45,151 nt of DNA from Pirellulales bacterium. Lineage in GTDB: Bacteria > Planctomycetota > Planctomycetia > Pirellulales > UBA1268. The position numbers and the translations under genes were made by a program. Positions 982-17,908 of this stretch are shown one piece after another (the first letter of the stretch is position 1; every line of letters begins with the position of its first letter). The notes below the pieces were generated by a model that saw only the letters and a list, made by a program, of their open reading frames with translations, made no database searches and was not told the DNA's origin. The stretch is taken from NCBI GenBank assembly GCA_044346905.1, contig JBIIYH010000002.1, positions 1 through 45,151 on the forward strand, written 5' to 3'.

Positions 982-1007
982 GGCAAGGACGACCCCGCTC
1001 GCACCGC

Positions 1008-1553: not shown

Positions 1554-1596
1554 ACCTCGAGGCGGGACTCCCCGAGCGTCCGTCGCGACGGCCCGG

Positions 1597-2115
1597 TCAA
1601 CCCCGAGCGTACGGCGTTGAAGCCCCCAGCCTGCGCACGATGGCCGCAGCCTCGGCTCCGCGGCCCGTGAACCTGAGCACGCGGGCCGACGGCGACTCGA
1701 TCCCGAGCGCGAGATCGATCCGCTCGGCGGGCAATGCCGCGGCGATCCGCTCAGGCCACTCGACGAACACCCAGCCCGCGCCGGCGATCGCGTCGTCCCA
1801 GCCGGTCTCCGCGAGCTCGGCCGGGTCAGCCAGCCGATACATGTCGGCATGCACGATCCGCTCGGGCCGCCCGCCCGCCGCGGGCGGTTCATGTACGTGG
1901 ATCAGCCCGAAGGTCGGGCTCGTGACTTCCGCCGGGTCGAGGCCCACGGCCGCGGCCACAGCCTTGACGAAGGTCGTCTTCCCGGCGCCGAGGTCGCCCG
2001 CGAGCGTCACGACCGCGCGGGGCGGCAGCACGGACGCCAGCCGGGCGGCCAGCCGGCCGAGGGCCTGCTCGTCATCGACCAGGATCGTGGCCGTGCCGCT
2101 AGCGGCCGAGGTCAT
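1597..2115 (-). CDS. tsaE: tRNA t6A37 biosynthesis ATPase TsaE (YjeE)
   Basis: Trimmed to ATG 2115 (MTSAAS...). P-loop GDLGAGKTTFVK, then SPTFGLIHVH and HADMYRL as in the TsaE family. Confidence 0.85.
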   Translation of the reverse strand: MTSAASGTATILVDDEQALGRLAARLASVLPPRAVVTLAGDLGAGKTTFVKAVAAAVGLDPAEVTSPTFGLIHVHEPPAAGGRPERIVHADMYRLADPAELAETGWDDAIAGAGWVFVEWPERIAAALPAERIDLALGIESPSARVLRFTGRGAEAAAIVRRLGASTPYARG

Positions 2116-3046: not shown

Positions 3047-3098
3047 GCACAGGGCTCTCGCGGGCCCCGGAGTATAAGCCTGCACGGTCGCGGCCGAC

Positions 3099-4406: not shown

Positions 4407-4589
4407 CGGCACCCGCTCCCCTGTAACCCCGACCGACACACGACTTCCGGCCGGTACCTGCGGCCAAAACGCCAGGGCCAGTGTGGGCATCGGCCGGGGC
4501 TCGCCCGCAGGTTCAGCGGTTACCCCCGGGGGCGGCAGAGTTTCGCAGCCGGCCGCCCGGGGGCTCGGAACCTGCGGCCGCCGGGAAAA

Positions 4590-5783
4590 TCATTCATGAC
4601 GGCCGCTGCCGGCCACGAGCAGCGGCAGCAGTTGCAGGAGCAAGAAACCGCCCAGGGCGGCCAGCGCCACGAACGGCCAGGTGCCCGCCAGCCAGCCGCC
4701 CAGGGCCCAATCGAACTCGTGGGCGAGCCCCCCCACCAGGGCCGCCAGGATCACGAGCCCCAAGGCCGCCAGAATGATTCCGCAGCCGAGCGACGCCATC
4801 GTGCCCCGGAACGTGCCCAGGTCGCTGAACTCCTCCTGATGGAGATCGACGGCCCGCCCCTTGGCGACACTGCGGGGCACCGCGTCGGCCAGTTCGATCG
4901 CCCGCGCCGCGTCGGCCCAGCTGGCCGCCGGCACGACCGGCGCGGCGACGGGGTCTGGTTCACGCTCGAGCGCGGCCTCGAGCAAGCTCATCGTCTCGGC
5001 TGCCGGCTGGTATGCCTGCTCCTCGTCGGCCTGCCCCGGCTGGGACCACCGCCATGGTCGCGACCAGTCGGCGGGAATCTCCACGGCAGCGATGCCGCGC
5101 TCGCAGTGCACCGCGAGCCGCACGCCCGGCTCACCCCCCGCGGCGGCCTGCCAGCGAACGGGCACGCTCGTGGGGCCGGTGAAGCCCACGACGAGCGTTT
5201 GCCAGGCGGCCGCATCAGTCTCCGGGCCGACGCCCAGCGCTGAGAGCCGGGCCGGATCCCCCGTCAAGACGCGGACCAGATCGGCGTCGCAGGCGAGCGC
5301 CGCGAGGACGTCACTCCGGCGGCGGCTCGCGAGCCGCCGCTCGAGCACCAGCGACTCGACGCCGCCGAGCGGCCCGCTGCCGGCGAGACTCGCCTCGAGC
5401 AGTTCCCGCAGCCGGGCCACGAACGGATGGAGCCGCTCGGGCAGGAGCGGCACGATCACCCCACCGACGTCGCGGCGGATCATTTCTACTTCCCAGGCCC
5501 AGAGCATCGAGGGGTCGAGGGGATGCGAGGCGACCAGCGGGCGGCCCGCCTGGACGAGCAGCCGGACCGCCTCGGCCCGCTCGGTGGACCAGCCGTCGCG
5601 GCCCACGAGCACGGCGTCGCACACGGCCGGGTCGAGCAGGCCGCCGCTGTCACCGGCGTGGGCCGCCGCCGCGGGCATGTCCACGGTGATCGCGATCTCG
5701 TGGCCCCGGCGGGTCGCCTCCGCGGCCACCGCCGCGATCCTCGGATCGGTGCCCAGCATGCCCAGCTTCAGTGCGGCCTTCAT
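4590..5783 (-). CDS. Hypothetical membrane-anchored protein (degenerate Gfo/Idh/MocA-like N-terminus, two C-terminal TM helices)
   Basis: This is the C-terminal 397 aa of the 825-aa ORF 4590-7067, trimmed to ATG 5783 (MKAALKLGMLG...). The upstream part of the ORF is antisense to cinA. The composition looks protein-like. C-terminal hydrophobic helices: GCGIILAALGLVILAALVGGL and WPFVALAALGGFLLLQLLPLLVA. Confidence 0.5.
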   Translation of the reverse strand: MKAALKLGMLGTDPRIAAVAAEATRRGHEIAITVDMPAAAAHAGDSGGLLDPAVCDAVLVGRDGWSTERAEAVRLLVQAGRPLVASHPLDPSMLWAWEVEMIRRDVGGVIVPLLPERLHPFVARLRELLEASLAGSGPLGGVESLVLERRLASRRRSDVLAALACDADLVRVLTGDPARLSALGVGPETDAAAWQTLVVGFTGPTSVPVRWQAAAGGEPGVRLAVHCERGIAAVEIPADWSRPWRWSQPGQADEEQAYQPAAETMSLLEAALEREPDPVAAPVVPAASWADAARAIELADAVPRSVAKGRAVDLHQEEFSDLGTFRGTMASLGCGIILAALGLVILAALVGGLAHEFDWALGGWLAGTWPFVALAALGGFLLLQLLPLLVAGSGRHE

Positions 5784-5969
5784 GAGGGCATTGTTCCCCA
5801 ACCACGGCCGATCGGCCAGCCGGCCCCGTTGCGCCCCCCGGGATTGATGGATGCAAGGGTGCCGCCGTGCTGGGCAGGGGGCCCGAGCCCGGGTATAGAA
5901 AGGGGTTGATTCGTGATTTCCCCGGGCCACTTCGCTTGCCCCCCGGAAACTCGGCCTCGGGAGACTCGC

Positions 5970-7175
5970 ATGCACGCGGAGGTGATCGCCATCGGCGACG
6001 AGCTGGTGACTGGCCAGCGGCTCGACACCAACAGCCGCTGGCTGTCGGCGGAGCTGGCCGTGCTCGGGATCCCCGTCAGCTTCCACACCACGGCGGCCGA
6101 CACGCTCGAGGCCGGGATCGAGGCTTTTCGGATCGCCGCGGGCCGGGCCGACGTGGTCGTGGCCACGGGTGGCCTGGGCCCCACCGCCGACGACCTCACC
6201 CGCGACGTCCTGGCCGCCCTGGCCGGCTGCCCGCTCATGCTCTCGGAGCCGTCGCTCGCAGCGATCGAGGCGCGGTTCGCATCCCGCGGCATGCCCTGCC
6301 CGGAGTCGAACCGGCGGCAGGCGCTGTTTCCGGAGGGGAGCCGGATCATTCCCAATCCCCACGGCACCGCGCCGGGCATCGATCTTTCCGTCATCGTCGC
6401 GGGCCGCCGCAGCCGGGTGTTCGCCCTGCCCGGCGTGCCCGCCGAAATGAAGCCGATGTGGCAGGCGACGGTCGCTCCGGCGGTGCTGGCGATGCTGCCC
6501 GAGGCGGCCACGATCCTCCAGCGGCGGATCAAATGTTTCGGCGCGGGCGAAAGCGCGATCGAGGCGATGCTCCCCGATCTGGTTCGCCGGGGCCGCGACC
6601 CGCTGGTGGGCATCACCGCCCACGAGGCGACGATCACCCTGCGAATCGCGGCCCGGGGTCGCGACGACGCGGAGTGCCGCGGCAAGATCGCGGCGACCGA
6701 GCGGGTGATCCGCGATTGCCTGGGGCCGCTCGTGTTCGGGGTCGAGGACGAGGAGCTCGAAGACGCGACGCTCGCGGCCGTCGCCGGCACGCTCGCCGTG
6801 TGCGAGGCGGGCACCGCGGGGGCGGTCGCCGCCCTGCTCGGCCAGGCCGAGGCCCGCCGCCAAAGCGATGGGCTCGCGAGCGTGTTTCTTGGCGGGCTCG
6901 TGCTGCCGAGCGACGAGCTCGCTGCCACCGCTGCCGCAGCCCGAGCGCGGCGGGAGTTTGCGGCCGACGTCGGCCTGGGCATCGGGGGGATCGGCACCAC
7001 GGCCGACGGCCGGCAGGCGGTGATCCTGGCCATCGACGCTCCGGCCGGCACCGCTCATGTGGAGCACGTGCTCGGCGGCGGGCCGACGTTGGCCATGGTC
7101 CGGGCCGCCAAGGCCGGGATCGATCTCGTGCGGAGTCGTGCGGCAGCGGCTCGCCCTGCGGAGGCCCCTCGATGA
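5970..7175 (+). CDS. cinA: CinA-family competence/damage-inducible protein (MoCF-biosynthesis domain + CinA C-terminal domain)
   Basis: Trimmed to ATG 5970 (MHAEVIAIGDELVTGQ...) with a GGGAG 7 nt upstream. Motifs: VVVATGGLGPTADDLT and NPHGTAPG. Confidence 0.8.
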   Translation: MHAEVIAIGDELVTGQRLDTNSRWLSAELAVLGIPVSFHTTAADTLEAGIEAFRIAAGRADVVVATGGLGPTADDLTRDVLAALAGCPLMLSEPSLAAIEARFASRGMPCPESNRRQALFPEGSRIIPNPHGTAPGIDLSVIVAGRRSRVFALPGVPAEMKPMWQATVAPAVLAMLPEAATILQRRIKCFGAGESAIEAMLPDLVRRGRDPLVGITAHEATITLRIAARGRDDAECRGKIAATERVIRDCLGPLVFGVEDEELEDATLAAVAGTLAVCEAGTAGAVAALLGQAEARRQSDGLASVFLGGLVLPSDELAATAAAARARREFAADVGLGIGGIGTTADGRQAVILAIDAPAGTAHVEHVLGGGPTLAMVRAAKAGIDLVRSRAAAARPAEAPR

Positions 7176-8281
7176 GTCCAGCCGGCTCCAGCCGCGGCTC
7201 GGAGGCCATCTGGCGAACCACGGTCCTGTTCGCCGGACTCGTGACGCTCGTGGCCCTGATCGCCTGGCCCTCCTTCATGGGCCGCATTCAATACGCCCGG
7301 ACCCGGGCCGAACTGGCGGCGATCGCCGATGCCGCAGCGGGCGCCCGGCTGGCACCGGTGGCCAAGCTGTTCACGACGCTCGCCCGGCTGATCGGCCCCT
7401 CGGTCGTCAACGTGACGGCGGACCGCCGGCTGGCGAGCATCGCCGACGAGATCGCCGCCCTGCACGGGGAATCGCCCCAAGGGATCAGCGACGAGTCGGT
7501 CGGGTCCGGGGTGATCGTGGGCAGCGACGGCGTGATCGTGACCAACTATCACGTGGTGGCCCGGGCCGACCGGATCTCCGTCCGGCTGGCCGACGGCCGC
7601 GAGTTTCCCGCCCGGCTGATCGGGGCCGATGCGGGCACCGACGTGGCCGTGCTCGAGATCGATGCCGAGGGGCTTCCGGCCGCAACGTGGGGAGACAGCG
7701 ACGGGCTCGAGGTCGGCGAGATGGTCTGGGCGATCGGCAATCCCTTCGGCCTCGACCGGACCCTGACTTACGGGATCATCAGCGCCGTGGGCCGCCGGGG
7801 CGTCACGGGCGACCCGCTGCAGGAGTTCCTTCAGACCGACGCCGCGATCAACCCCGGCAACTCCGGGGGCCCGCTGGTGGACGTCAATGGCCGGGTCGTG
7901 GGCATCACGACGGCGATGGCCGGCCACGACTCCCAGGGCATCGGCTTCGCGATCCCGAGCAACACGGCCCGCGAAGTCGCCGAGGCGATCCACCGCCTCG
8001 GCCACGTGGAGCGGGGCTATCTCGGGCTGGCCCTGCGGCGCACGGTGGACGGCAGCGATGGCGTGCTCGTGATGGCCACCGAGCGGGACAGCCCCGGCGC
8101 CGAGGCGGGCCTCGAGGCCGGCGACGTGATCGTGGCCTTCGACGGCCAGGAGGTGCCGGCCCCCGCAGCGCTCGTGCTGCTCCTGACCCGGGCCGACGTG
8201 GGCACGGAAGTGCCGCTCGAGATCGTGCGCGAGGGCCGCCGCCTCACGCTCCCCGTCCGCATCGGCCGCCGGCCGCGCTAG
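7172..8281 (+). CDS. Membrane-anchored HtrA-like serine protease with one PDZ domain
   Basis: The ATG at 7172 overlaps the cinA stop (ATGA). N-terminal TM helix (TVLFAGLVTLVALIAW). Triad contexts TNYHVV, DVAVLEI and GNSGGPLVD. PDZ segment GVLVMATERDSPGAEAGLEAGDVIVAFDG. Confidence 0.8.
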   Translation: MSPAGSSRGSEAIWRTTVLFAGLVTLVALIAWPSFMGRIQYARTRAELAAIADAAAGARLAPVAKLFTTLARLIGPSVVNVTADRRLASIADEIAALHGESPQGISDESVGSGVIVGSDGVIVTNYHVVARADRISVRLADGREFPARLIGADAGTDVAVLEIDAEGLPAATWGDSDGLEVGEMVWAIGNPFGLDRTLTYGIISAVGRRGVTGDPLQEFLQTDAAINPGNSGGPLVDVNGRVVGITTAMAGHDSQGIGFAIPSNTAREVAEAIHRLGHVERGYLGLALRRTVDGSDGVLVMATERDSPGAEAGLEAGDVIVAFDGQEVPAPAALVLLLTRADVGTEVPLEIVREGRRLTLPVRIGRRPR

Positions 8282-8533
8282 CTATACGGCGGCAATGCCA
8301 TCCCTGGCCATTGCCGCCTTGGCGGCACTCCGGCCGCACCTCCGGGCGGCCGTGCTCGTGCGATTGCCTGGCGCACGGCGTGCGTGCAGACGAATCCACG
8401 GAATCCGGCATCCACTTCCACAACCGTTGGACAGCTCGGGGTGGCCGGTTCCCTGGAGCCGGCCTTGATAGCGAGCGCAGGCAGGATGCCGAAGCGAGCT
8501 AGCATGGAGCGACCGAAGGGCAGGATGCCCGCA

Positions 8534-8701
8534 GGGAGCGTCCGGGCGACAGGGACCGGCCACCCCGAGCCTGCGTCACCCAAGACGAAGGGAGCGTCCG
8601 GCGACGGGACACGGGTAACCCCGAGCCTGCGTTACCCAAGACGCGGGGAGCGTCCGGGCGACAGGGACCGGCCACCCCGAGCCTGCGTTACCCAAGGCGC
8701 G
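8534..8701. repeat. Tandem repeat, 3 x 56 bp, between convergent gene ends
   Basis: Units lie at 8534-8589, 8590-8645 and 8646-8701, each starting GGGAGCGTCCGG and ending GAGCCTGCGT(C/T)ACCCAAG. Units 1 and 3 are nearly identical, and unit 2 diverges in its centre. The same peptide string (GSGWPVPVARTLPA) recurs in two spurious ORF-track translations, which confirms the repeat. Confidence 0.85.
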
Positions 8702-8709
8702 ACGCGGCG

Positions 8710-11700
8710 TCAGGCTTCCGGGGCGGGGTCGTCGGGCATCTCGCCGAGCATCTTCGTGAAGTCGAAACTCCCGCCACCGCCGAAGGAAAACCCTCCGGGC
8801 TCCGCCGGCGACGCCTCGGTCGGCGGCGCGGCCGACGCCGGCGTCCGCTCCACCGGCGTGCCCTGCGGCCGAGCTCGCATCCGGGCGGCCATCGTTGAGA
8901 GCCACTCGGGCGATGGGAAGGCGTAGGGGCGGAACTTCTCGAGCGTGCCCGTCTCCTCGTGGATGAACAGGCCCCGATTGGGGCCGAGCTTGGCCGCCGT
9001 CGGGCTGTCCACCAGCGTGCTCGAGTCGGAACTGCTCATCTGGAAGAGCACGCGCAGCTCGAACTCCTTGATCGCGCCGCGGTCGAAGGTCCGCTGGAGG
9101 TTCGTGAGGGAGTCGCACCAGCAGATCACGTGGATGCCCACGGGCGGGCCGTCCCGAAGCACGGTCAGGAAGTTGTCGGCCGGGGTGGCCTTCTTCTCCT
9201 CGCCGTAGCCGCCGAAGCCGAAGTCGCCGTCGGCCTTGCGGAGCTCGCGGAACCGGCCCAGGTCCCGCACCACGAGAAACACTGCCTCGCCGTCGAGCAC
9301 CTGCTCGTCGAGCCGCCGCTTCACCTCGGTGGCGAGGGCAGCCAACGCGTCGGGCACCCCCAGCCGACCGGCGAGCTCGATCTCGTGGGGCAGGTGCTCG
9401 GCCAGCCGGGCCAGCATGATGTCGGGCTTCTCCTCGGCGATCGCCGGCTCCAGGACCACGAACCGGGCCGCCCGCCCCAGGCCGCCCCCGGGAAACGGGT
9501 CGTGCTCGGCCGCCAGGCTGACGATCGACATCGCCAACAGGCTCGTGCCGAGATCCTCCCGCTGGCCGGCGATTAGCATGTTGGCGCCCCCCTGGCGGCG
9601 GAAGATCGCCGCGGTGGGATCCTTGATGGCGATCGCGTCGCCCAGCCAGGCGAGCGGCGCGAGCAGCTCCTGGCCGTGGACGGTGCCCTGCTCGAGCATC
9701 TCCGTGAGCAGCGGATTGTGGGCCGGGTCGGCCGCCTGGTTGCCGTCGAACACGATCCGCTCGAGGTGCGGGATGTCGGTCCGGCGGTCGGCCAGCTTCC
9801 GCAGGTCGCCGAGATACTGCTCCCGCTGCTCGTCGGTGAGAAACACGACCTGGAACGGGTTGTTGCCCTCGACCATGCCGTTGGCGTCGTTGTAGATCGC
9901 CTCACCAGGGCGGGTCAGCAGCCGGGCGGCAGTGTTGTCGTCGCTGAGGATCAGGCTGGAGTCGGCCTCGTTGCACTGCAGGGCCACGCGGACCGCCATC
10001 TGGCCCATCGTGGCCCGCGGCAGGCTGTAGGAGCCGCCGAGCGTCTGCGAGCCGAGCAGTACGTGAATCCCGAAGGCACGACCCTGGCGGACGAGCCGGT
10101 CGAGGATCAAGGCGGCATCCTGGGCGATCTTGTCGTCCTCGACGAAGATCTCCTGAAACTCGTCGATCAACAGCAGGATCCGCGGCATCGGGTCGGGGTG
10201 CCCCGTCTGACGGAAGCCCGCCACGTTCTGCACCGAGAGCTCCCGGAACAGATCGCCGCGGCGTTTGAGCTCGCGGTCGAGCTGCTCCATCACCGAGAGG
10301 CCGAACTCCCGCTCGCTCTCGATCGCGATCACGCGGGCGTGCGGCAGCGCGTAGTGGTCGTAGAGTTTGAACTCGACGCCCTTCTTGAAGTCGATCAGGT
10401 AGAACTGGATCTCGTTGGGGCTGTATTGCAAGGCCAGGCTGGTGATCATGGCGTGCATCAGCGTCGATTTGCCGGAGCCCGTCTTGCCGGCGATCAGCAC
10501 GTGCTGGCTCGTGCCCTTGCCGAGCTTGAGGAACTGGAGCTTCTTGGCGCCGGCGGGGCCGAGCGGCGCGAGCACCTCCTCGGCGGTACTGCCGTGCCAC
10601 CAGTCCTCCGCCTTGGGGGCCACGCGGTCGAATGGCACCACCACCCGCTTGGCCGCCTTGGCCGCCCGGCCCACCCGCTGGATGATCCGCGTGAACACGT
10701 CGTCGGAGGGCGCCTGCTCGACCGAGAGCGGCCAGCGGGAAAACTCCGGGTCGGCCCAGGTGAACTCGCCGTCGTCGAGCGTCAGCACGGTTGAATGCTG
10801 CTCGACCTCGGCCAGGCTGAATCCCGCCGGCATCTGCTGGGAGGGATCGACCGAAAGCAGCACGTAGACGCCGCAGCGGGCTCCGGAGGCGGCGATGCTC
10901 GCCAGCCGGCGGGCGCTGGTCTCGGTGAAGTTGGCCGGGAAGTTGGCCACCACCACGAACCGGTAGGGCTCGGGCACCTCCGCGTCGGCATTGTAAGCGC
11001 CGATCGATTCGTATTCGTTGCGGAGATACTTCTGGATCACCACCTCCATCTGCTCGGTGATGTCGGCCAGCTTCTGCTCGATCAGCTGCGGCTCGGTCCA
11101 GATCCGGCTCGTGACCAAAAGCTCATCATGGTCGGCCAGGTGCATGAAGCCGGCAAACTGCTTGCCCAGGCCGAGCGGGTCGATGATCGTGAACCGGCTC
11201 TGGCCGGCGGGGATGCCGGTGGCGATCCGCAGCATCATCGCCTGCATCATCGCCGACGAGGTCTCCTTCTGCTCTGGTGTGGTCCGAATCACGAGCGACG
11301 CGGCCACCGGCCAAGGCACCGTGGCGGGCTGCGTCCAGGACACGGGCCCGAAGGCATTCAGCTCGGGCACGCTCGACACGCCGCCCGGCACCCGCTCCAG
11401 CGACAACGCAAGCCCGCCGAACCGCAACCCGGGCGGCGGATCGGCGGGGAGCGGCACCGCTTCGTTTGCCAGTTCGTGCCAAGGGCGGAAGGCGGCTGCA
11501 TCCAGCCGGGACGCTTCGTCGTAGACGGCCCCGGCCGACTCCCGAGCCTCCCGCCAGCGGGCGGTCATCGCGGCCCAACGCTCGTCGCGGCGGGCATTCA
11601 CCGCGGCCAGTCGCTCGTCCCGCTCCCGCTCCAGCCGCGCGACATCCTCCCCGAGCGCGGTCTCGAGTGCGGTGATCTTGGGCGGATACTTGGCCTCGGC

Positions 11701-12906
11701 GGCCTGCTTGTGTTCGGCCACCTTGGCGGCCAGCTTGTCGCAGCCCTCCTGATACTTGGCCTCGAGGGCCGCCAGATCCGCATCCCGCTTCGCGACCAGC
11801 TCGGCGCACTGTGCCTCGAGCTGGGCCTTGCGATCCTCCCCCTCCTTCTGAAACGCCTCCTTCAGCTTCTGCGACTGCTCGTCCCGTCGGGCCACGAGCC
11901 GGGCCCGGGCGGGCGGAACGAGCCGCCTGCCGGCCGCGACCGTCTCGACCAGTTGCCCATGCACCGCCGCCAGTTCCGCGCGGGCGGCGGCTCGCTTACG
12001 GCCCAGGAACCACAGGCCGCCACCGAGCCCTCCCACAAGGAGCGCGGCCGCCGCACCGCCGGCGATGGCCGCCCGGGTCGCGATGTCCATGCCGGAGAGC
12101 CCGAAGAAGCCGCCGGCGGCTGCCGCAGCGGCCAGGGCCAGCGGCCCGGCGACGACCGCCCCCTGAAGGCCGCTCGAAAACGCCTGCTTCACCGCCGGCA
12201 GGCCGGCGATCTCCTTGGCCTGCTCGGCGGCGGCATCGCGAAGGGCCAGCAGCTTCTGGAGCGGATCATCGGGGAGGTCGGCGGCCTCGGCGGCGGCCCC
12301 CTCCTCGAAGGCAGCCGGCTCCGTGACCGGCACACCCCGCTTGGCCAGCTGCTTGCCCGCCGCGGACAACGCCTCGTCGAACTGGGCGGCTGCGCGACCG
12401 ACCTCGCCTTCGCCCTTGGCGAAGCTCACGAGCGGCTGCTTGGCCCGATCCTTGGCCACCGAAGTCGCCGCCATCGTGGCGAAGTCGGCCTCTTCCTTGA
12501 GATCGGCCACCTTCTTCGCACAGGTCACCTGGTGGTTTTTGGCCCTTGCCTGGCGGTCGGCATCGAGCTTCTTCCGATTCGTCGCCAGGAAGGCCTCGGC
12601 CTCCCGCACGACCTCCGCATGCTTCCGGCGGGTGGCCTCGATCTCCGCCGCGTGCCGCTTGCGGGTCGCATCCAGCGCGGCCGCCGCGGCGGAACTGGTC
12701 TCGTCTCGGGCGGTCTGGTACTCGGCGGTGATCTCGGTCTCGGCCTTGGCCCGGACGGCGGACTCCCGGCGCAGCAGGGCCATCTGCTCCCGCAGCACGC
12801 CGGGGGCATAGGCCGAGGGCGGCCGCGGCGCGGCCCCGGCAGCGGGAACGTCGCTGTCGCTGAAGGGAGATGCCGGGGCGGAAGATGTCGGGACGTCGGT
12901 GCTCAC
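8710..12906 (-). CDS. EssC/EccC-like type VII secretion ATPase (FtsK/SpoIIIE family, three P-loop domains, TM hairpin, long coiled coils)
   Basis: 1398-aa ORF with a GTG start at 12906 and a GAGGAA 5 nt upstream. Intact Walker A GKTGSGKS (10465-10488) and Walker B LLLIDEFQ (10153-10176). It is flanked by two FtsK-like domains with degenerate P-loops: RTTPEQKETS (11257-11286) and GQREDLGTS (9541-9567). Gly/Ala-rich TM hairpin at about aa 247-301 (12004-12168). WXG100-like genes lie immediately upstream. Confidence 0.85.
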   Translation of the reverse strand: MSTDVPTSSAPASPFSDSDVPAAGAAPRPPSAYAPGVLREQMALLRRESAVRAKAETEITAEYQTARDETSSAAAAALDATRKRHAAEIEATRRKHAEVVREAEAFLATNRKKLDADRQARAKNHQVTCAKKVADLKEEADFATMAATSVAKDRAKQPLVSFAKGEGEVGRAAAQFDEALSAAGKQLAKRGVPVTEPAAFEEGAAAEAADLPDDPLQKLLALRDAAAEQAKEIAGLPAVKQAFSSGLQGAVVAGPLALAAAAAAGGFFGLSGMDIATRAAIAGGAAAALLVGGLGGGLWFLGRKRAAARAELAAVHGQLVETVAAGRRLVPPARARLVARRDEQSQKLKEAFQKEGEDRKAQLEAQCAELVAKRDADLAALEAKYQEGCDKLAAKVAEHKQAAEAKYPPKITALETALGEDVARLERERDERLAAVNARRDERWAAMTARWREARESAGAVYDEASRLDAAAFRPWHELANEAVPLPADPPPGLRFGGLALSLERVPGGVSSVPELNAFGPVSWTQPATVPWPVAASLVIRTTPEQKETSSAMMQAMMLRIATGIPAGQSRFTIIDPLGLGKQFAGFMHLADHDELLVTSRIWTEPQLIEQKLADITEQMEVVIQKYLRNEYESIGAYNADAEVPEPYRFVVVANFPANFTETSARRLASIAASGARCGVYVLLSVDPSQQMPAGFSLAEVEQHSTVLTLDDGEFTWADPEFSRWPLSVEQAPSDDVFTRIIQRVGRAAKAAKRVVVPFDRVAPKAEDWWHGSTAEEVLAPLGPAGAKKLQFLKLGKGTSQHVLIAGKTGSGKSTLMHAMITSLALQYSPNEIQFYLIDFKKGVEFKLYDHYALPHARVIAIESEREFGLSVMEQLDRELKRRGDLFRELSVQNVAGFRQTGHPDPMPRILLLIDEFQEIFVEDDKIAQDAALILDRLVRQGRAFGIHVLLGSQTLGGSYSLPRATMGQMAVRVALQCNEADSSLILSDDNTAARLLTRPGEAIYNDANGMVEGNNPFQVVFLTDEQREQYLGDLRKLADRRTDIPHLERIVFDGNQAADPAHNPLLTEMLEQGTVHGQELLAPLAWLGDAIAIKDPTAAIFRRQGGANMLIAGQREDLGTSLLAMSIVSLAAEHDPFPGGGLGRAARFVVLEPAIAEEKPDIMLARLAEHLPHEIELAGRLGVPDALAALATEVKRRLDEQVLDGEAVFLVVRDLGRFRELRKADGDFGFGGYGEEKKATPADNFLTVLRDGPPVGIHVICWCDSLTNLQRTFDRGAIKEFELRVLFQMSSSDSSTLVDSPTAAKLGPNRGLFIHEETGTLEKFRPYAFPSPEWLSTMAARMRARPQGTPVERTPASAAPPTEASPAEPGGFSFGGGGSFDFTKMLGEMPDDPAPEA

Positions 12907-12936
12907 GGAGTTCCTCGGGGCCGGCTCGGGAAACGA

Positions 12937-13173
12937 TCAATAACCGTCGGAGTCGCTCACGTCCCGCGCGGCCCGGTCGAGCACTTCGGCCAGGCGGCCG
13001 AGCGCGTCGAGCGTGTCCTTCACGTTCGGCAGCAGCGGCTCGACGTTCTGCTTGTGAAAGGCCTTGGCCCGGGCGTCAGGCCAGGTCTCGGCCGCCGCCT
13101 CCCACTTGAGATTGATCTGCTTGAGCGCGTTGGCGAGTTTGCTCGCGCCGCTCGAGAGGTCGCCGACCCTCAT
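12937..13173 (-). CDS. Small WXG100-like helical protein (W-P-D variant)
   Basis: 78-aa ORF whose ATG overlaps the stop of the upstream gene (ATGA at 13170-13173). The central motif ETWPDARAKAF (W at 13081-13083) parallels STWRDQEQQKF in the 90-aa paralogue. Predicted to be all-helical, with non-junk composition. Confidence 0.6.
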   Translation of the reverse strand: MRVGDLSSGASKLANALKQINLKWEAAAETWPDARAKAFHKQNVEPLLPNVKDTLDALGRLAEVLDRAARDVSDSDGY

Positions 13174-13784
13174 GCCTCACCCCCGCCCGGGTCGGTGGCG
13201 GCCGGGGCCGCGGGAGCGGCCGGGGCCGGCGACTCGTCGAGCTGCCTGGTCACGGTGCCGCCGCCGCCACCGCCGTCGCCCGCCGTCTGCCCGGCGGGCG
13301 AGGCGATCTGGCGGTAGGCGTCGAGCGCCCTGAGCATCGTGTCGAGCTGCGCCATGGCCCGCGGGCAGTCGACGTCGATCACGTCGCGAAACCGCACCAG
13401 CCGGACGCAGGTCTCACGAAACTGCTGCTGCACGACCGGCGTCCAGCGCCGCACGGCCTCGGCCTTCTGCTCGGCCCGGGCGAGCCTCTGCCGGGCCTTG
13501 TCCAACGCCTTCTTCTCCTCGATGCAGGACGGAGTGTTGTCGCCCACCTTCTTGAAGGTCCGGCAGTGCTCGAGGTCCTTGATCGCCTTGTTGACGAGGT
13601 CGCTCATCCGCCGGATCTCGGCCTTCCAGTAGGCGGCCCGGTCGACGCAGATGTATTCCACAGCCCGCTGGCCCTGGATCTCGACCTCGGCCAGAGCCTG
13701 CCCCGACTCGTGCGCGAAGGCCGCGAACGCGGTCTTCACGAACGCGAGCGTGTCGATCGACTTGACGTCGGCCTGCTGGTTCAT
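13170..13784 (-). CDS. Hypothetical helical protein with Gly/Pro/Ala-rich C-terminal tail (T7SS-like operon member)
   Basis: 204-aa ORF with protein-like composition (K/E/I/F-rich despite the GC-rich DNA). It sits between the two WXG-like genes on the same strand. The tail is SPAGQTAGDGGGGGGTV..PAPAAPAAPAATDPGGGEA. I recognise no family. Confidence 0.6.
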   Translation of the reverse strand: MNQQADVKSIDTLAFVKTAFAAFAHESGQALAEVEIQGQRAVEYICVDRAAYWKAEIRRMSDLVNKAIKDLEHCRTFKKVGDNTPSCIEEKKALDKARQRLARAEQKAEAVRRWTPVVQQQFRETCVRLVRFRDVIDVDCPRAMAQLDTMLRALDAYRQIASPAGQTAGDGGGGGGTVTRQLDESPAPAAPAAPAATDPGGGEA

Positions 13785-13842
13785 GGCTGATCCTCGTGCC
13801 GCTGCCTGCCGGGGGTGACCGGCGACCCGCCGGTGCCGGAGC

Positions 13843-14115
13843 TCACCGCTGCTGGAGATACTCCTCGACCCGCTCGGCCTTGCGAATCAGATAGGGCACG
13901 TATTCGCCCGTCGATTCCGCGAACCGTTTGAAGGTGGTGAGTTGGGCCTCGAACTCGGCGGCGAACTTCTGCTGCTCCTGGTCTCGCCAGGTCGAGCCGA
14001 GCTGCGCGAGTTGCCGCTGGACCATCTGCATGTGGGCCATGACTTCCTCGCTGAACGTTCGCAGATTCCCCGCGAAGCGTCGAAGCTCCGCCGGATCGAC
14101 GATTGCCTGTCCCAT
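13843..14115 (-). CDS. WXG100-family-like protein (ESAT-6/EsxA-like, W-R-D variant)
   Basis: 90 aa, trimmed from ORF 13843-15147 to ATG 14115 with a GAGGGG 8 nt upstream. It aligns by eye to YukE/EsxA: IVDPAELRRFAGNL...QLAQLGSTWRDQEQQKFAAEFEAQL. The W lies mid-protein (aa 43; TWRD = 13981-13992), as expected for a helix-turn-helix hairpin. Confidence 0.75.
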   Translation of the reverse strand: MGQAIVDPAELRRFAGNLRTFSEEVMAHMQMVQRQLAQLGSTWRDQEQQKFAAEFEAQLTTFKRFAESTGEYVPYLIRKAERVEEYLQQR

Positions 14116-15181: not shown

Positions 15182-15940
15182 TCACTTCGCTGGCGCGAGG
15201 ATCAGCTCGACGTCGGTGCCGGGAGGTGGCACGCGGCCTTCGAACGCCTGAAACAGCAGCGCCTCGTTCGATTGGCTGCTCTCGATCGGCAGGTCGAGCA
15301 TCGCCCCGGGAAAGTTGGAGACGCAGATCATGTCGCCGCCGTCGGCCTGGTAGTGCTCCGTTCCATCCGCGGGATCCCGCCAGAAGCCGCTCCCCGCGAA
15401 CACCCAGTCGGCGTTCAACTGCTCTTCGGTCTGCGTGTTGCGAACCAACTCCTGAGCCGGCCGCTCCTGCCACTTTCCGTCGGCGTCCTGCCACCGAACC
15501 CGTACCGCCACCTTGGGGCCGCGGGCCGGGACGTACTCGGGGTCGAATGACACCGGATTGCCCGGCTCGAGCCCGATCGCCAGCAGGCCCGCATGCACGA
15601 GCCGGGCCGGGCAGCGGGTGGCGACGATCGCCTCGTGCTCCTTCGAGCCGGCCGGGCAGGCGAAGACCTCGATTTCACCCTCGGCGATCGCGATCTTCCC
15701 GCCGACGACCACCCGCTTGCCCGCGAGGTCGAGCCAGACGTCGTCGGTCCGGGAGAGCCGACGCAGCTCTGGGTGGCGGTCGGGGGGGGCGGCTGGCTCC
15801 TCTGCGACGGCCGGTTTCCCAGCGACGGCCGGTTCCGTGGCGACGGCCGGGCCGACGACGGTCAGGGTCGCCACGAGAACCGCGACCCACCGCAGCAGAC
15901 GGCAACCAGTGACGGGAGCGGGCGAAAGCTGGCCTGTCAT
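15182..15940 (-). CDS. Secreted hypothetical protein, YdjY-domain-like (tentative)
   Basis: ORF track 15182-15940. It has a signal peptide/TM (LLRWVAVLVATLTVVGPAVA) and a PAVA(x)E linker repeat. The conserved-looking core EIEVFACPAGSKEHEAIV resembles YdjY-domain proteins, recalled from memory. Confidence 0.55.
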   Translation of the reverse strand: MTGQLSPAPVTGCRLLRWVAVLVATLTVVGPAVATEPAVAGKPAVAEEPAAPPDRHPELRRLSRTDDVWLDLAGKRVVVGGKIAIAEGEIEVFACPAGSKEHEAIVATRCPARLVHAGLLAIGLEPGNPVSFDPEYVPARGPKVAVRVRWQDADGKWQERPAQELVRNTQTEEQLNADWVFAGSGFWRDPADGTEHYQADGGDMICVSNFPGAMLDLPIESSQSNEALLFQAFEGRVPPPGTDVELILAPAK

Positions 15941-15979: not shown

Positions 15980-17908
15980 ATGCCTCCGTTACGATACCCC
16001 GGCCGCTGCAACCCTGCGACGGCCCACTCTGAACTCCGCGAGAATCCGATGCCGTCTCAGCCCCCAGCCCAGGCCCGGTCGGGCTCCCGTCGCAGCCGGC
16101 CAGACGCCGTCGGCGGCCGCAACCCCGCCGCCGACGAGTCGGCGACCGCGCCGCCCGCGGCAGCGAGCCTGCCGGCACCGCGGGTGAAGCGGGCACTGGC
16201 CGCGCGGCGGATCCGTGCGCTGGCCGACGTGGCGAGCACCCTGGGGATTCGCGACCGGCTCCGGCGGCTGGGTGACCGCGTCGCCAAGGGCGCCGGCGAC
16301 CCTCAGCGGGCCGAGTTCATCGAGACGGCGATCGCCGAGTGCCTCGACGATGCACCCGCCGCGCCTCCGGCCGATCGCTGGCTGGCCTGCGAAGCCGCCG
16401 CGTGGGCGCTTGCCTGGATGGCGCGGGCCCGACGGGCGGGAGGCTCGGCAGGCGGCCTGCTCGAGCGACTCGTGGGCGAGGCCCGGTCAGCCGAGCCGCT
16501 CTTGGCCGCAGGCGACACGCTGCCGGCGAGGTTCGTGCTCGGCCTAGCGCGGCTGTTTCGCGACATCGAGGCCTGCCGCCGGCTCGAGCCGGCGGCCGCC
16601 GCCGCAGTGACCGCCGAGATCGAGCGGCTCACGTCGGTGGATGGCATCGTCACGGTGGCCGGTGGCGGGTCGATCGTCGAGCGGGTCGTCCGGTGGACGA
16701 TGATTCGCGACGTCGCGACGGCCACGGGCGAGCCGGCCTGGAACGAAGCCGTCGATCGCCGCTGGCAGGACGCGGCCACGAGTGCCATGCGGCTCTTGGG
16801 CGACGACGGCCGACGAGTCGCCGCCGGTGGTCTGATGCCGGCGGGATTCACCGCGCCGCTGCTGGCAGTCGCGGCGGAGTTGGGTGGGCGACGGAAGCGG
16901 ACGATGGAGGCCGTGGGCCGCTGCCGCTCGGCCCCCGGAAAGCCCGGCCACTTCATCCGCCGCGACCTGCACGACGCCGCGGCGGCCGTCGCGATCATGC
17001 GCACGGGCTGGGAGCGGGGCAGTCTCCGGGTGCTTGTCGACTACCGGCAGGCCGTGCCCCATCTCGAGATCGCCGCCGGCGACCGGCTGCTGGTCGATGG
17101 CCCGTGGGACTGGAGCGTGTCCTCTGCCGGCGAGGCGTGCGGCGTGGCAGGCCCCTGGACGGCGTCGTGCTGGGAGTCAGATCGGCAGGCGACGTTTCTG
17201 GAGATCACCACTCCGCTGGCAGGTGGACGGCAGTTCGAGCGGCAGGTGGTGCTCCTGCCGCGGGAGCGGGTCGTGGTGCTGGCTGACGCCGTGACCCAGC
17301 TCGGCGGGGCTGACGCCGTGACCCAGCTCGGCGGGGCTGACGCCGTGACCCAGCTCGGCGGGGCTGACGCCGTGACCGCGAACGCCGCGGTGGGGGTGAA
17401 CGGCCGGCATGGTGACCACCAGCCGACACCACTGCGGTATCAGTCCACGGTGCGGCTCGCTCAGGGACTCGACACCGACCTGGCCGAGGAGACCCGCGAG
17501 GCGATCGTGTTCGATACCCGGATGCGGCTGATGGCGCTGCCGCTGGCGTTGCCCGAGTGGAGGGTCGGCCGGGGCGGCAGCCTCGACCGCACCGCGGACG
17601 GCCTGACGCTGGTGCAGGAGTCGGCCGGGCGCCGGCTCTATGCCCCGCTGTGGCTTGACTGCGATGCTGCCCGGATCGGCCAGCCGCTCACCTGGCGGCA
17701 GCTGACCGTGGCCGACACCAGGATCAATCTCCCGGCCTGGCAGGCGGCCGGTTTTCGCGTGCAGTCGGGGCAGGAGCAGTGGCTGCTCTATCGCTCCCTC
17801 GACGCGGCCCGGAATCGCACGCTGCTGGGCTGCAACGTCTCGTGCGAGTTTCTGCTGGGCCGGATCCGGCCCCGCGGCACCGTCAAGCGGGTGCTGGAGA
17901 TCCAGTGA
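15980..17908 (+). CDS. Hypothetical protein, heparinase II/III-like architecture (tentative), carrying an in-frame 9-aa tandem repeat
   Basis: ORF track 15980-17908; an alternative start is ATG 16049. A helical N-terminal half is followed by a beta-rich C-terminal half with 'HLEIAAGDRLLVDGPWDW' and 'RQVVLLPRERVVVLADAV' patterns reminiscent of the heparinase II/III C-terminal domain. The function is not secure. Confidence 0.55.
   Translation: MPPLRYPGRCNPATAHSELRENPMPSQPPAQARSGSRRSRPDAVGGRNPAADESATAPPAAASLPAPRVKRALAARRIRALADVASTLGIRDRLRRLGDRVAKGAGDPQRAEFIETAIAECLDDAPAAPPADRWLACEAAAWALAWMARARRAGGSAGGLLERLVGEARSAEPLLAAGDTLPARFVLGLARLFRDIEACRRLEPAAAAAVTAEIERLTSVDGIVTVAGGGSIVERVVRWTMIRDVATATGEPAWNEAVDRRWQDAATSAMRLLGDDGRRVAAGGLMPAGFTAPLLAVAAELGGRRKRTMEAVGRCRSAPGKPGHFIRRDLHDAAAAVAIMRTGWERGSLRVLVDYRQAVPHLEIAAGDRLLVDGPWDWSVSSAGEACGVAGPWTASCWESDRQATFLEITTPLAGGRQFERQVVLLPRERVVVLADAVTQLGGADAVTQLGGADAVTQLGGADAVTANAAVGVNGRHGDHQPTPLRYQSTVRLAQGLDTDLAEETREAIVFDTRMRLMALPLALPEWRVGRGGSLDRTADGLTLVQESAGRRLYAPLWLDCDAARIGQPLTWRQLTVADTRINLPAWQAAGFRVQSGQEQWLLYRSLDAARNRTLLGCNVSCEFLLGRIRPRGTVKRVLEIQ
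17282..17377 (+). repeat. In-frame 27-bp tandem repeat (3 full units + 15-bp partial) encoding (ADAVTQLGG)3-ADAVT
   Basis: GCTGACGCCGTGACCCAGCTCGGCGGG occurs at 17282-17308, 17309-17335 and 17336-17362 as perfect copies. A partial copy lies at 17363-17377. The frame was verified against the ORF-track translation. Confidence 0.9.

Follow-up and report, generated by a model that had tools for sequence, protein, structure and literature searches.

A four-gene operon of WXG100-like proteins and an EccC/EssC-like ATPase conserved in Planctomycetota

Introduction

How is a planctomycete locus to be understood in which genes for WXG100-like proteins are packed against the gene of an EssC/EccC-like ATPase, and none of the usual partners of type VII secretion is encoded nearby? 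Systems for type VII secretion (T7SS) are regarded as a trait of Actinomycetota and Bacillota, and the latest classification into T7SSa-j spans these two phyla only (PMC11217815). The canonical T7SSa are the ESX systems with EccB/C/D/E and MycP, and T7SSb-j combine EssC with EsaA/EssA/EssB/EsaB and variants thereof (PMC11217815).

A minimal type VII-like class is already known from comparative genomics. This WXG/ATPase class is credited to Anantharaman et al. 2012 (PMC11090510, PMC4978471), and the combination of WxG and FtsK has been called a minimal T7SS set (PMC4978471). In footnote 6 to their Table 1, Zhang et al. 2012 (PMC3482391) describe a solo WXG protein with a three-domain YueA-like ATPase of which the middle domain alone is active, list planctomycetes among the carriers and speak of "mobile versions of T7SS".

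Here, we present a computational analysis of such an operon from a Pirellulales bacterium. The window, i.e. the whole stretch of DNA analysed, comprises 45,151 nt, and a sequence-only reading of it had proposed a compact module containing the defining core of a T7SS.

Results

Organization and surroundings of the operon

The operon consists of the following genes:

wxgA: 13843..14115, minus strand; 90 aa, ATG start; WXG100-family protein, predicted hairpin, HP0062-like type
mid204: 13170..13784, minus strand; 204 aa, ATG start; predicted helical protein of an orphan family
wxgB: 12937..13173, minus strand; 78 aa, ATG start; candidate divergent WXG100-like protein
ATPase gene: 8710..12906, minus strand; 1398 aa, GTG start; EssC/EccC-like, open reading frame confirmed

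This four-gene operon is real and tightly packed. The coordinates, the gaps of 58 nt (wxgA-mid204) and 30 nt (wxgB-ATPase) and the ATGA at 13173-13170, in which the start of wxgB overlaps the stop of mid204, were all reproduced as first described. Shine-Dalgarno-like motifs of the GAGG(A) type lie 1-9 nt upstream of all four starts, and the third-position GC of the four frames (0.90-0.91) is similar to that of the adjoining genes.

The operon lies between genes for CinA and an HtrA-like protein and, at its opposite end, a chlorite-dismutase/HemQ-like gene. It had been regarded as embedded in housekeeping genes rather than in an island, and this view held: its GC content and GC3 are as in the flanks, close relatives have the flanks in common, and no integrase or transposase adjoins it within the window. 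The planctomycetal character claimed for the surroundings was likewise borne out by PSCyt1/PSCyt2/PSD1 and DUF1501 genes in the window. A Pfam scan of the 30 window proteins outside the operon found no T7SS accessory family, neither EccB, EccD, EccE or MycP nor EsaA, EssA, EssB or EsaB/YukD, in agreement with the earlier statement that accessory membrane components are missing from the window. At the locus, PADLOC reported generic P-loop similarity and otherwise no defence genes.

The small proteins

The product of wxgA had been called WXG100-like, and it passes the Pfam WXG100 model (PF06013) with 35.5 bits at a cut-off of 27.3; with the NCBIfam subfamily model TIGR03930 it stays below the cut-off (33.8 against 44.85 bits). 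Instead of the W-x-G turn it carries W43-R44-D45 (nt 13981-13989), and these three residues as well as F51 are invariant among 21 diverse homologues. The family profile matched H. pylori HP0062 (3fx7/2gts) best in the PDB (E 3e-12, full length), followed by EsxB (2e-8, end to end) and S. aureus EsxA (3e-4). HP0062, with the same W-R-D turn, is counted as WXG100-like (PMC3397514), and homologues of wxgA are named "WXG100 family type VII secretion target" by NCBI. Profile comparison shows wxgA to belong to the WXG100 proteins of the HP0062 (W-R-D) type, and by homology its 90-aa product would fold as a helix-turn-helix hairpin like the family members of about 100 residues. No other protein of the module is as strongly conserved (46-97% identity across the phylum); secreted effectors are not usually so constant, and a structural or regulatory role would agree with it.

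The assignment of the 78-aa product of wxgB as WXG-like stood in part. Its match to Pfam WXG100 (20.5 bits, E 6e-4) misses the cut-off of 27.3, and with this model no more than 6 of the 27 family members attain E<=0.01. Within these 27 homologues W31 and D33 of the turn motif W31-x-D33 (nt 13075-13083) are invariant and F39 is conserved in at least 90%. A weak kinship to wxgA was seen by hhalign of the two families (E 7e-4, anchored on the W-x-D...F stretch) and in a shuffle control, where 45 of 54 wxgA sequences outscored the best of 2160 shuffles with the wxgB profile. The best meaningful PDB match was S. aureus EsxA (E 0.02). These comparisons weakly suggest that wxgB is a divergent W-x-D paralogue.

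For mid204, the helical nature proposed earlier is supported by an AF2 model with four predicted helices (2-23, 29-77, 85-134 and 140-161) and a disordered, Gly/Pro/Ala-rich tail (165-204); the overall pLDDT is 67, rising to 80-94 within the long hairpin. The protein gave no match in Pfam, NCBIfam or PADLOC and none in the PDB, by sequence profile or by fold; in these Pfam and PDB comparisons no likeness to LXG proteins or any T7SS substrate was detected, and Pfam and NCBIfam revealed no toxin or immunity domain. It represents an orphan four-helix family, large (1529 clusters at 50% identity, E<=1e-3) and entirely unannotated, in which W53 and Y157 never vary and C87 and W114 are kept in at least 90%. 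In longer homologues of 339-386 aa, all ten that were scanned add a C-terminal Imm33-like domain (PF24719). Reading of the C-terminal helices of wxgA, wxgB and mid204 did not reveal a YxxxD/E export motif.

Architecture of the ATPase

The ATPase can be divided as follows (residues; window coordinates, all on the minus strand):

1-245; 12172..12906: N-terminal cytoplasmic region, charged and apparently coiled-coil-like
246-302; 12001..12171: predicted hairpin of two membrane helices joined by a loop of about 8 residues, then the positively charged GRKRAAAR
303-490; 11437..12000: putative cytoplasmic coiled-coil "stalk" joining the membrane hairpin to the NTPase-like domains (composition, alignment conservation)
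493-760; 10627..11430: first FtsK-like alpha/beta domain, degenerate, highly conserved (AF2)
778-1025; 9832..10575: middle P-loop domain (motif search, Pfam, alignments to EccC/EccC5/YukB)
1050-1345; 8872..9759: third FtsK-like domain, degenerate (AF2, Foldseek alignment to EccC)
1346-1398; 8713..8871: low-complexity C-terminal tail, pLDDT <50

The N-terminal region contains no Pfam domain and no FHA domain, and in one homologue (P0046) a Ser/Thr kinase domain takes its place. Hydropathy analysis (Kyte-Doolittle) predicts segments at 246-270 and 279-302, i.e. the two N-proximal transmembrane helices expected of EccC/EssC. All planctomycetal homologues that were compared have this pair, and a comparable one was not seen in the ATPase relatives from Rhodococcus, Deinococcus and Helicobacter.

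The protein had been described as a membrane-anchored multi-P-loop ATPase. The predicted hairpin agrees with the anchor; the multi-P-loop part is wrong, because only the middle domain keeps Walker A (GKTGSGKS, residues 807-814, nt 10465-10488) and Walker B (LLLIDE, 911-916, nt 10159-10176), and there is a single Pfam FtsK_SpoIIIE match (795-955, 2.6e-32). In both flanking domains, the lysine of Walker A and the D-E pair of Walker B are missing. In detail, the first has no GK[ST], Walker A or Walker B but many invariant columns (e.g. IIDPLGLG, VIQKYLRN), and EssC was its only weak match among PDB sequences (E 0.2). The third shows GQREDLGTS and VVRDLG at the Walker A and B positions, matches EccC5 weakly in sequence (E 0.004) and retains a RVLFQMSSSDSS motif, which we take to be the FtsK-like signature. 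From these motifs, the middle one of the three FtsK-like domains is the only one predicted to be catalytically competent, and a single P-loop is also common to the relatives from Rhodococcus, Deinococcus and Helicobacter. The C-terminal tail carries a conserved motif, F-x-F-G...F-[ND]-F-T-K-x-L, in the alignment.

Affinity to EccC/EssC

The EssC/EccC-like assignment had been linked to a possible grouping with FtsK- or TcpA-type translocases as its counter-evidence, and EccC/EssC outscored both by NCBIfam, PDB profiles and Foldseek. Profile searches against the PDB gave E-values of 5e-36 for EccC, 6e-31 for EccC5 and 4e-25 for YukB as against 1e-9 for FtsK and TcpA; NCBIfam scores were 109 (EccCa), 102 (EccCb) and 97 bits (EssC) as against 40 for FtsK; and Foldseek aligned the three domains with D1-D3 of EccC (4nh0) over 908 columns at 2e-27, with FtsK at 5e-14. 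By sequence as well as by fold, DNA translocases are thus more distant from the ATPase than EccC/EssC.

The claim of a defining T7SS core survived in its basic form, a WXG100 gene in one operon with an EccC-like ATPase gene, but several hallmarks are missing. The equivalog models TIGR03924/03925/03928 match a single domain only and stay far below their cut-offs (109 vs 509, 102 vs 347 and 97 vs 778 bits), the turn is not W-x-G, YxxxD/E was not found, and in place of four NTPase-like domains (DUF, D1, D2, D3) the model has three alpha/beta domains with one Walker A.

Conservation and inheritance

The gene order in other Planctomycetota had been proposed as a check, and the small genes proved syntenic with the ATPase gene: the order wxgA - mid204 - wxgB - ATPase recurs in 47 of the 50 related loci with enough upstream DNA to inform on gene order. 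This arrangement is far beyond chance. The loci stem from Pirellulales, Isosphaeraceae, Gemmataceae and Phycisphaerae, so that the order is shown to be shared by Planctomycetia and Phycisphaerae. What flanks it varies, and no further neighbour is conserved across the loci of distant lineages. In a few lineages (L046, L059, L067) the ATPase gene stands without adjacent small genes. About 48 close homologues of the ATPase were found, all in Planctomycetota, and GTDB species representatives contain at least 580 matches. Tundrisphaera lichenicola, which is cultured and has a complete genome, carries the same four genes, and so does Singulisphaera sp. Ch08. In Tundrisphaera, a DDE transposase gene lies downstream of the operon.

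In a tree of the ATPases, the planctomycetal proteins are monophyletic with respect to relatives from Rhodococcus, Deinococcus and Helicobacter, and their clades roughly track taxonomy. Together with the host-like composition, this suggests that the module has apparently been inherited vertically within Planctomycetota.

Discussion

Relation to known systems

The class of Zhang et al. shares with the window the three FtsK-like domains, the central one alone with Walker A/B, and the small WXG100 partners (PMC3482391, footnote). However, the footnote presents that class as mobile, whereas the module of the window is chromosomally stable, with host-like composition, flanks common to close relatives and an ATPase tree roughly following taxonomy; the mid204 gene and the membrane hairpin are features of the window that the footnote does not mention. 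The T7SS-like module had been called minimal and experimentally uncharacterised. Accessory genes are indeed absent from the window, but novelty was overrated because the footnote noted the class in planctomycetes in 2012 and NCBI already names the wxgA homologues. Compared with that footnote, novelty seems to lie in the four-gene form, which spans the phylum and is apparently inherited vertically, in its membrane anchor and in the 204-aa family.

The "WXG100 secretion system" HP0062/HP0066 of Helicobacter pylori (3FX7; PMC3397514; PMC4978471) resembles the module in several respects: HP0062 is the full-length, W-R-D-bearing match of wxgA, and its ATPase likewise bears GKTGSGKS as the sole P-loop, midway along an FtsK-like array. 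A plasmid copy in Helicobacter sp. NHP19-012 even shows the order of the window, i.e. small WXG protein, larger helical protein, small protein and ATPase. In contrast, the Helicobacter ATPase (823 aa, about 26% identity) lacks the N-terminal coiled-coil and membrane-hairpin module of about 500 aa and has at most one hydrophobic segment. The middle gene of the plasmid copy encodes a WHH/colicin-DNase toxin and is followed by a SUKH immunity gene, both lying between the two small helical genes; this toxin is not a mid204 homologue, and mid204 has no similarity to its N-terminal part.

Type III-A CoCoNuT/TerY-P loci (Bell et al. 2024, PMC11090510) combine an EssC-like ATPase with two WXG100 proteins, one of them motif-less. 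As in the window, only the central of the three ATPase domains is predicted active. The N-terminus forms a coiled coil (>200 residues in CoCoNuT), as it apparently does in the window, and a further coiled-coil protein is encoded alongside (PMC11090510). These ATPases are without transmembrane helices and reside in defence operons beside a coiled-coil-nuclease fusion (PMC11090510), whereas the window has a conserved membrane hairpin, no defence genes nearby and a mid204 without a nuclease domain.

With canonical T7SS the locus shares a WXG100 hairpin protein and a membrane-anchored FtsK-family ATPase with a two-helix hairpin. Canonical ATPases possess four NTPase-like domains (DUF and D1-D3), of which D1 is catalytic and D2/D3 bind nucleotide (PMC11217815); the ATPase of the window has three domains and a single nucleotide site. 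Furthermore, FHA domain, accessory membrane proteins and ubiquitin-like EsaB/YukD are absent from the locus, W-x-D replaces W-x-G, YxxxD/E is missing, and the host, a diderm, belongs to neither Actinomycetota nor Bacillota.

A probable minimal T7SS-like module

On balance, the locus probably belongs to the minimal T7SS-like class, as a member with four genes that is fixed in the chromosome, a reading that we hold with moderate confidence. Besides the affinities of wxgA and the ATPase, the synteny and the apparently vertical inheritance, it draws on the Helicobacter relative that has a toxin and an immunity gene between its small helical genes. By analogy with EccC, whose helices form or gate the pore in ESX-5, the ATPase would act as a hexamer in the cytoplasmic membrane with 12 transmembrane helices forming or gating a pore. 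Energy would come from the middle domain, and the two degenerate, strongly conserved domains may serve as regulatory or substrate-docking modules like D2/D3 of EccC. The wxgA product could be a folded helical-bundle substrate or co-substrate, either as a homodimer, as in HP0062, or in combination with wxgB. With the two hairpins, mid204 may build an elongated helical complex comparable to an LXG effector and its two Lap partners, in which it would be cargo or adaptor. The small proteins would be exported across the inner membrane to the periplasm; no route through the outer membrane is encoded at the locus.

Several observations count against this reading: the canonical partners absent from the window, the missed equivalog cut-offs, the three NTPase-like domains instead of four, the W-x-D turn and the lack of YxxxD/E, a mid204 unlike LXG or T7SS substrates, the few lineages whose ATPases have no adjacent small genes, and the strong conservation of wxgA.

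Alternative explanations

Not every member of such a class need be a membrane translocase, as the CoCoNuT relatives without membrane helices imply (PMC11090510). The module might accordingly be a non-secretory, membrane-tethered ATPase complex with the WXG-like hairpins and mid204 as cytoplasmic adaptors or regulators, which we regard as unlikely. Roles in planctomycete envelope or membrane organisation, in FtsZ-independent division, or in stress or defence as in TerY-P/CoCoNuT might be imagined. The phylum-wide conservation, above all of wxgA, the housekeeping flanks, the lack of an outer-membrane component near the operon, the kinase fusion of P0046 and a hairpin loop of about 8 residues that leaves the ATPase without a periplasmic domain all favour such a complex, as do the helix-free relatives in defence operons. 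Opposed to it are the membrane hairpin in all planctomycetal homologues checked and the PADLOC result at the locus. Moreover, to our knowledge every experimentally studied pair of WXG100 and EccC/EssC proteins is a protein exporter (see also PMC11217815).

Export of polymorphic toxins for interbacterial antagonism, with mid204 or an unlinked protein as effector and the Imm33-like domain as immunity function, appears decidedly improbable. It draws on the Helicobacter plasmid relative (WXG - WHH nuclease toxin - SUKH immunity - small protein - ATPase), on the Imm33-like domain of the ten long mid204 homologues and on the export of LXG toxins with two small helical partners by T7SSb (PMC9600955). 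The mid204 of the window, however, carries no toxin or immunity domain and differs from the N-terminal part of the Helicobacter toxin, no immunity gene lies next to the operon, and its constant content and phylum-wide sequence conservation contrast with the variability of polymorphic-toxin cassettes.

In FtsK, the gamma (KOPS-binding) domain sits downstream of the FtsK-like domains. A chromosomal FtsK-type or conjugative TraB/TcpA-type DNA translocase with small helical genes adjacent by chance can practically be dismissed: the Pfam FtsK_SpoIIIE match and the name "DNA segregation ATPase FtsK/SpoIIIE" given to several homologues (JGI annotation) speak for it, but FtsK and TcpA score far below EccC and EssC by every measure, three domains with one active site fit EccC-type proteins and not FtsK, Pfam finds no domain downstream of the three FtsK-like domains, where the low-complexity tail lies, and the co-operonic WXG100 genes are kept in 47 of 50 loci.

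Significance

The locus is of interest as a four-gene version found conserved throughout a diderm phylum, with one predicted catalytic site, no accessory membrane proteins at the locus and a WXG100 partner under very strong conservation. If it is an exporter, it would be a natural minimal system, informative on what a lone EssC-type ATPase can do, on the degenerate domains and on the recognition of helical-bundle substrates; if not, it would reveal a non-secretory role of the WXG100/EssC pairing. Some planctomycetes are genetically tractable. Cultured carriers of the operon include T. lichenicola and Singulisphaera sp. Ch08. A bolder proposal, which we consider doubtful, takes the module for an ancient, vertically inherited housekeeping machine and no mobile toxin exporter: a self-sufficient, single-component T7SS-like translocase in which the hexamer with its 12 helices would itself serve as channel, moving a conserved helical complex of wxgA, wxgB and mid204 to the periplasm, where it would build or regulate a planctomycete-specific feature of the envelope. 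If true, no natural type VII-like system would be simpler, and none in an LPS-type diderm would have been known to function before it.

Organization of the operon and its surroundings

Four open reading frames form a compact operon on the minus strand, all exactly where the sequence-only reading had placed them:

14115..13843, minus strand, wxgA, WXG100-family protein of 90 aa
13784..13170, minus strand, mid204, helical protein of 204 aa
13173..12937, minus strand, wxgB, divergent WXG100-like protein of 78 aa
12906..8710, minus strand, EssC/EccC-like ATPase of 1398 aa, GTG start

As had been read from the sequence, the genes are tightly packed, with intergenic gaps of 58 and 30 nt and an ATGA overlap of the mid204 stop with the wxgB start. 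A GAGG(A)-type ribosome-binding motif lies ahead of all four starts, GC content is even throughout the operon region, and the GC3 of the four frames (0.90-0.91) is the same as in neighbouring genes. The previously proposed flanks were also found: one side carries CinA and an HtrA-type protease, the other a chlorite-dismutase/HemQ-like gene. More distant housekeeping genes in the window encode GreA, a sigma-70 factor, DnaG and a ComM-like Mg-chelatase, and a planctomycete-specific PSCyt1/PSCyt2/PSD1 + DUF1501 pair is present as well. Consensus scans for promoters and terminators yielded nothing above shuffled expectation, and the Rfam search gave no match. PADLOC reported nothing beyond a generic P-loop resemblance to SspH, mad8 and HerA, and an association with defence systems was therefore rejected.

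Several further features were observed. Three well-supported coding regions without a Pfam match adjoin the operon (15182-15940, minus; 15980-17908, plus; 4590-5750, minus); the Pfam-less neighbours of 252 and 642 aa accompany it in close relatives only (about 19-22 loci). A GC-rich repeat of 56-58 nt in three tandem copies (8530-8699, 78-100% identical) lies about 10 nt past the ATPase stop, in the convergent intergenic region with the HtrA-like gene, and has a partial inverted copy at 8434-8462. Its 25-nt core is absent from the rest of the window, it has no Rfam match, and folding of the region is slightly stronger than in shuffled sequences (z = -2.8). It may represent a terminator-like structure or a REP-like element. 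A perfect 967-bp direct repeat (36287-37253 and 42803-43769, spacing 6516 bp), both copies of which contain an IS91/Y2-type transposase fragment, flanks a GFO/IDH/MocA oxidoreductase gene and the PSCyt1-PSCyt2-PSD1/DUF1501 gene pair; in addition, a fragment of an IS91 zinc-binding transposase occupies 43608-44084. The arrangement could reflect either a composite-transposon-like unit or a duplication from assembly.

Architecture of the ATPase

The earlier description of the ATPase as a multi-P-loop protein is incorrect, since it contains a single Walker A motif (GKTGSGKS, aa 807-814), a single Walker B motif (LLLIDE) and one FtsK_SpoIIIE domain according to Pfam. The AlphaFold2 model of residues 481-1398 comprises three FtsK-like alpha/beta domains. 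In the first and third, both the Walker A lysine and the D-E pair of Walker B are missing, yet conservation is very strong. The top structural match was the three-domain cytoplasmic part of EccC from Thermomonospora curvata (4NH0; E 2e-27, 908 columns), followed by EccC and EssC D2-D3 fragments, with single-domain FtsK motors (5e-14) and TcpA (1e-10) much lower in the list. EccC and EssC relatives also led the sequence-profile comparison (EccC 5e-36, EccC5 6e-31 and YukB 4e-25 versus about 1e-9 for FtsK/TcpA) and the NCBIfam scores (EccCa 109, EccCb 102 and EssC 97 bits versus 40 for FtsK, all far under the equivalog cut-offs), in agreement with the EssC/EccC type originally assigned. Profiled individually, the two degenerate domains gave marginal matches only (EssC E 0.2, EccC5 E 0.004), and a one-to-one assignment of the three domains to DUF/D1/D2/D3 of EccC was abandoned for this reason.

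The N-terminus consists of about 245 charged residues which appear coiled-coil-like, followed by two hydrophobic helices (246-270 and 279-302) with a connecting loop of about 8 residues and by about 190 residues that probably form a coiled coil. Neither an FHA domain nor a periplasmic domain is present in the ATPase.

The otherwise low-complexity tail (aa 1346-1398, window 8713-8871) harbors a short motif, F-x-F-G...F-[ND]-F-T-K-x-L-[DG]-[DE], which is kept in close homologues, is missing from the two most divergent ones and may be an interaction peptide. In one homologue (P0046; 1577 aa, from a JGI contig of 391 kb, 53% identical over the C-terminal 62%), a Ser/Thr protein kinase domain replaces the N-terminal region, which is reminiscent of Gram-positive T7SS variants with which FHA domains and kinases are associated.

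The WXG100-like proteins

The WXG100-like nature ascribed to the 90-aa protein is evident from Pfam, where wxgA scores 35.5 bits against a threshold of 27.3, and NCBI names its planctomycetal homologues "WXG100 family type VII secretion target". A family profile built from 21 diverse homologues aligned end-to-end with Helicobacter pylori HP0062, for which a crystal structure exists (E 3e-12), and less well with EsxB (2e-8) and S. aureus EsxA (3e-4). The hairpin turn carries an invariant W-R-D in place of W-x-G, identical to the turn of HP0062. The latter has been described as an ESAT-6-like homodimeric hairpin protein whose gene is clustered with an FtsK/SpoIIIE gene (PMC3397514).

For the 78-aa protein, the proposed WXG-like character holds in part: wxgB shows an invariant W-x-D with a conserved F six residues downstream, and stays under the Pfam WXG100 threshold (20.5 bits). 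Two weak lines relate it to wxgA, a profile-profile alignment anchored at W-x-D...F (E 7e-4) and a ranking in which the wxgB profile placed 45 of 54 real wxgA sequences over the best of 2160 composition-matched shuffles. Judged from these sequence comparisons, wxgB is a probable divergent paralogue of wxgA, for which proven WXG100 membership is not claimed. The YxxxD/E motif is absent from wxgA, wxgB and mid204.

A wxgA homologue with 62% identity to the window copy was also found in an Acidobacteria-labelled MAG (CDHKMI010000077.1; locus L081, 8001-8273), between arginine decarboxylase and acyltransferase genes and with no ATPase within the 7-8 kb flanks.

The mid204 family

The helical character predicted for the 204-aa protein agrees with its AlphaFold2 model (pLDDT 67 overall, up to 80-94 in the core), in which a long helical hairpin (29-77 / 85-134) and two shorter flanking helices precede a disordered tail. 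No match to mid204 was found in Pfam, NCBIfam or PADLOC. Foldseek against the PDB returned generic coiled-coil matches alone (best E 0.2), the profile search of PDB sequences returned chance MHC matches, and hhalign comparisons with the two WXG families reached E values of 0.012 and 0.059 with probabilities below 4%. Homology to any searched family or fold can thus not be claimed. A YbaB/EbfC match (Pfam E 0.13), a candidate link to ESX-associated YbaB-like proteins, was dropped because it had no other support.

The family comprises 1529 clusters at 50% identity (E<=1e-3). In long homologues (339-386 aa), a C-terminal Imm33-like domain (PF24719) was present in all ten scanned (P0315, P0341, P0352, P0355, P0364, P0366, P0373, P0374, P0378 and P0419), at the place of which the window protein has its disordered tail; further long forms of this kind are encoded at two related loci (L041:7702-8766 and L080:8244-9326). 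Domains of this type are familiar from immunity proteins of polymorphic toxins.

Conservation and inheritance in Planctomycetota

All close ATPase homologues belong to the Planctomycetota. A GTDB scan with one genome per species yielded 580 or more matching stretches, and the 80 best ones stem from Pirellulales, Isosphaeraceae (including the complete genome of Singulisphaera sp. Ch08), Gemmataceae, Thermoguttaceae, Phycisphaerales and Tepidisphaeraceae. The gene order was compared across the phylum, as the sequence-only reading had suggested, using 50 informative loci in which the ATPase is full-length and the upstream DNA spans 1.4 kb or more. In 47 of these, profile HMMs detected the full set of three small genes, and their upstream position in the same order and strand was script-confirmed in 39; the other eight probably reflect mis-called ATPase starts. 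The cultured Tundrisphaera lichenicola (complete genome) possesses the four genes with quite different flanks. CinA and HemQ-like flanks are common to the window and close relatives, and clustering of flanking ORFs revealed no extra neighbour conserved among distant lineages. In a quick neighbor-joining (NJ) distance tree, indicative only, the planctomycetal ATPases are monophyletic with respect to plasmid relatives from Rhodococcus, Deinococcus and Helicobacter, and their clades roughly track taxonomy. Homologue distribution, synteny and tree therefore point to an old, chromosomally stable module, in line with the earlier impression that it is not an obvious island.

Three loci (L046, L059 and L067, probably also L056 and L064) encode a full-length ATPase with membrane hairpin and single P-loop and lack the small genes upstream. 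A separate paralogue clade was rejected, as L046 and L059 group together (with L064) and L067 falls inside the Phycisphaerae clade; in the absence of a single deep clade, unlinking or loss of the small genes seems more likely.

In Isosphaeraceae loci, large opposite-strand ORFs immediately upstream of the module cluster with the ATPase family in all-against-all BLAST (one without Walker A). They may represent either degenerate paralogues or ORFs that arise spuriously from high GC content:

L033 (Singulisphaera sp. Ch08), 374-4882 and 5126-7228
L039, 3709-5415

Relation to known systems and possible function

Taken together, the locus is well supported as a member of the minimal class of a WXG100 protein with an EssC-like ATPase active in its middle domain alone. 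The initial T7SS-like interpretation was right in outline, and the module lies outside canonical T7SSa/T7SSb; the T7SSa-j classification is limited to Actinomycetota and Bacillota, with ATPases of four NTPase domains (PMC11217815). The class was previously noted in planctomycetes, as solo WXG proteins with a YueA-like ATPase whose middle domain alone of three is active, and was termed mobile there (Zhang et al. 2012, PMC3482391, Table 1 footnote 6). A WxG protein with an FtsK-type ATPase has also been called a minimal T7SS set (PMC4978471). In a full-text literature search this footnote was the only mention of the class in Planctomycetota, and no experimental work on the class was found.

Outside the phylum, tblastn against plasmids identified three-domain, single-P-loop relatives in Rhodococcus, Deinococcus, Caballeronia and Helicobacter, none of which shows the paired hydrophobic segments of the planctomycetal ATPases. 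The Rhodococcus gene adjoins TerD genes. The Helicobacter plasmid locus has the layout of a polymorphic-toxin system, in an order parallel to the planctomycetal operon: a WXG100 protein (89 aa), a 340-aa toxin ending in a WHH/colicin-DNase domain, then a SUKH (SMI1/KNR4) immunity protein, a protein of 77 aa and the ATPase. No similarity to mid204 was detectable in the N-terminal part of this toxin (hhalign E 0.1). EssC homologues of CoCoNuT loci likewise combine three domains, of which the central one alone is active, with an N-terminal coiled coil exceeding 200 residues; they lack membrane helices and are encoded with two WXG100 proteins, one without the motif (Bell et al. 2024, PMC11090510).

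We consider it fairly probable that a hexameric, membrane-anchored ATPase exports the small proteins over the cytoplasmic membrane as a folded helical complex. The catalytic middle domain would serve as motor, the degenerate domains would provide docking or regulation, and mid204 might be cargo or adaptor by analogy to LXG effectors with two small partners. Our confidence is limited because wxgA is more strongly conserved than is usual among secreted proteins, the ATPase lacks a periplasmic domain, the locus encodes no outer-membrane route and relatives without membrane helices exist. The same four facts lend real weight to a non-secretory, adaptor-type role, which we regard as a serious if unlikely alternative to export. 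An export of toxins is less probable still: the Helicobacter relative and the Imm33-like fusions of long mid204 homologues fit it, but the invariant content of the planctomycetal operon does not. FtsK and TcpA are the lower-ranking resemblances of the ATPase, and a DNA-translocase role is very unlikely.

The present study adds the conserved four-gene form with its membrane anchor, the phylum-wide distribution with apparently vertical inheritance, and the large unannotated mid204 family. The kind of system itself is not new, and the operon makes a good candidate as a model of a minimal type VII-like system.
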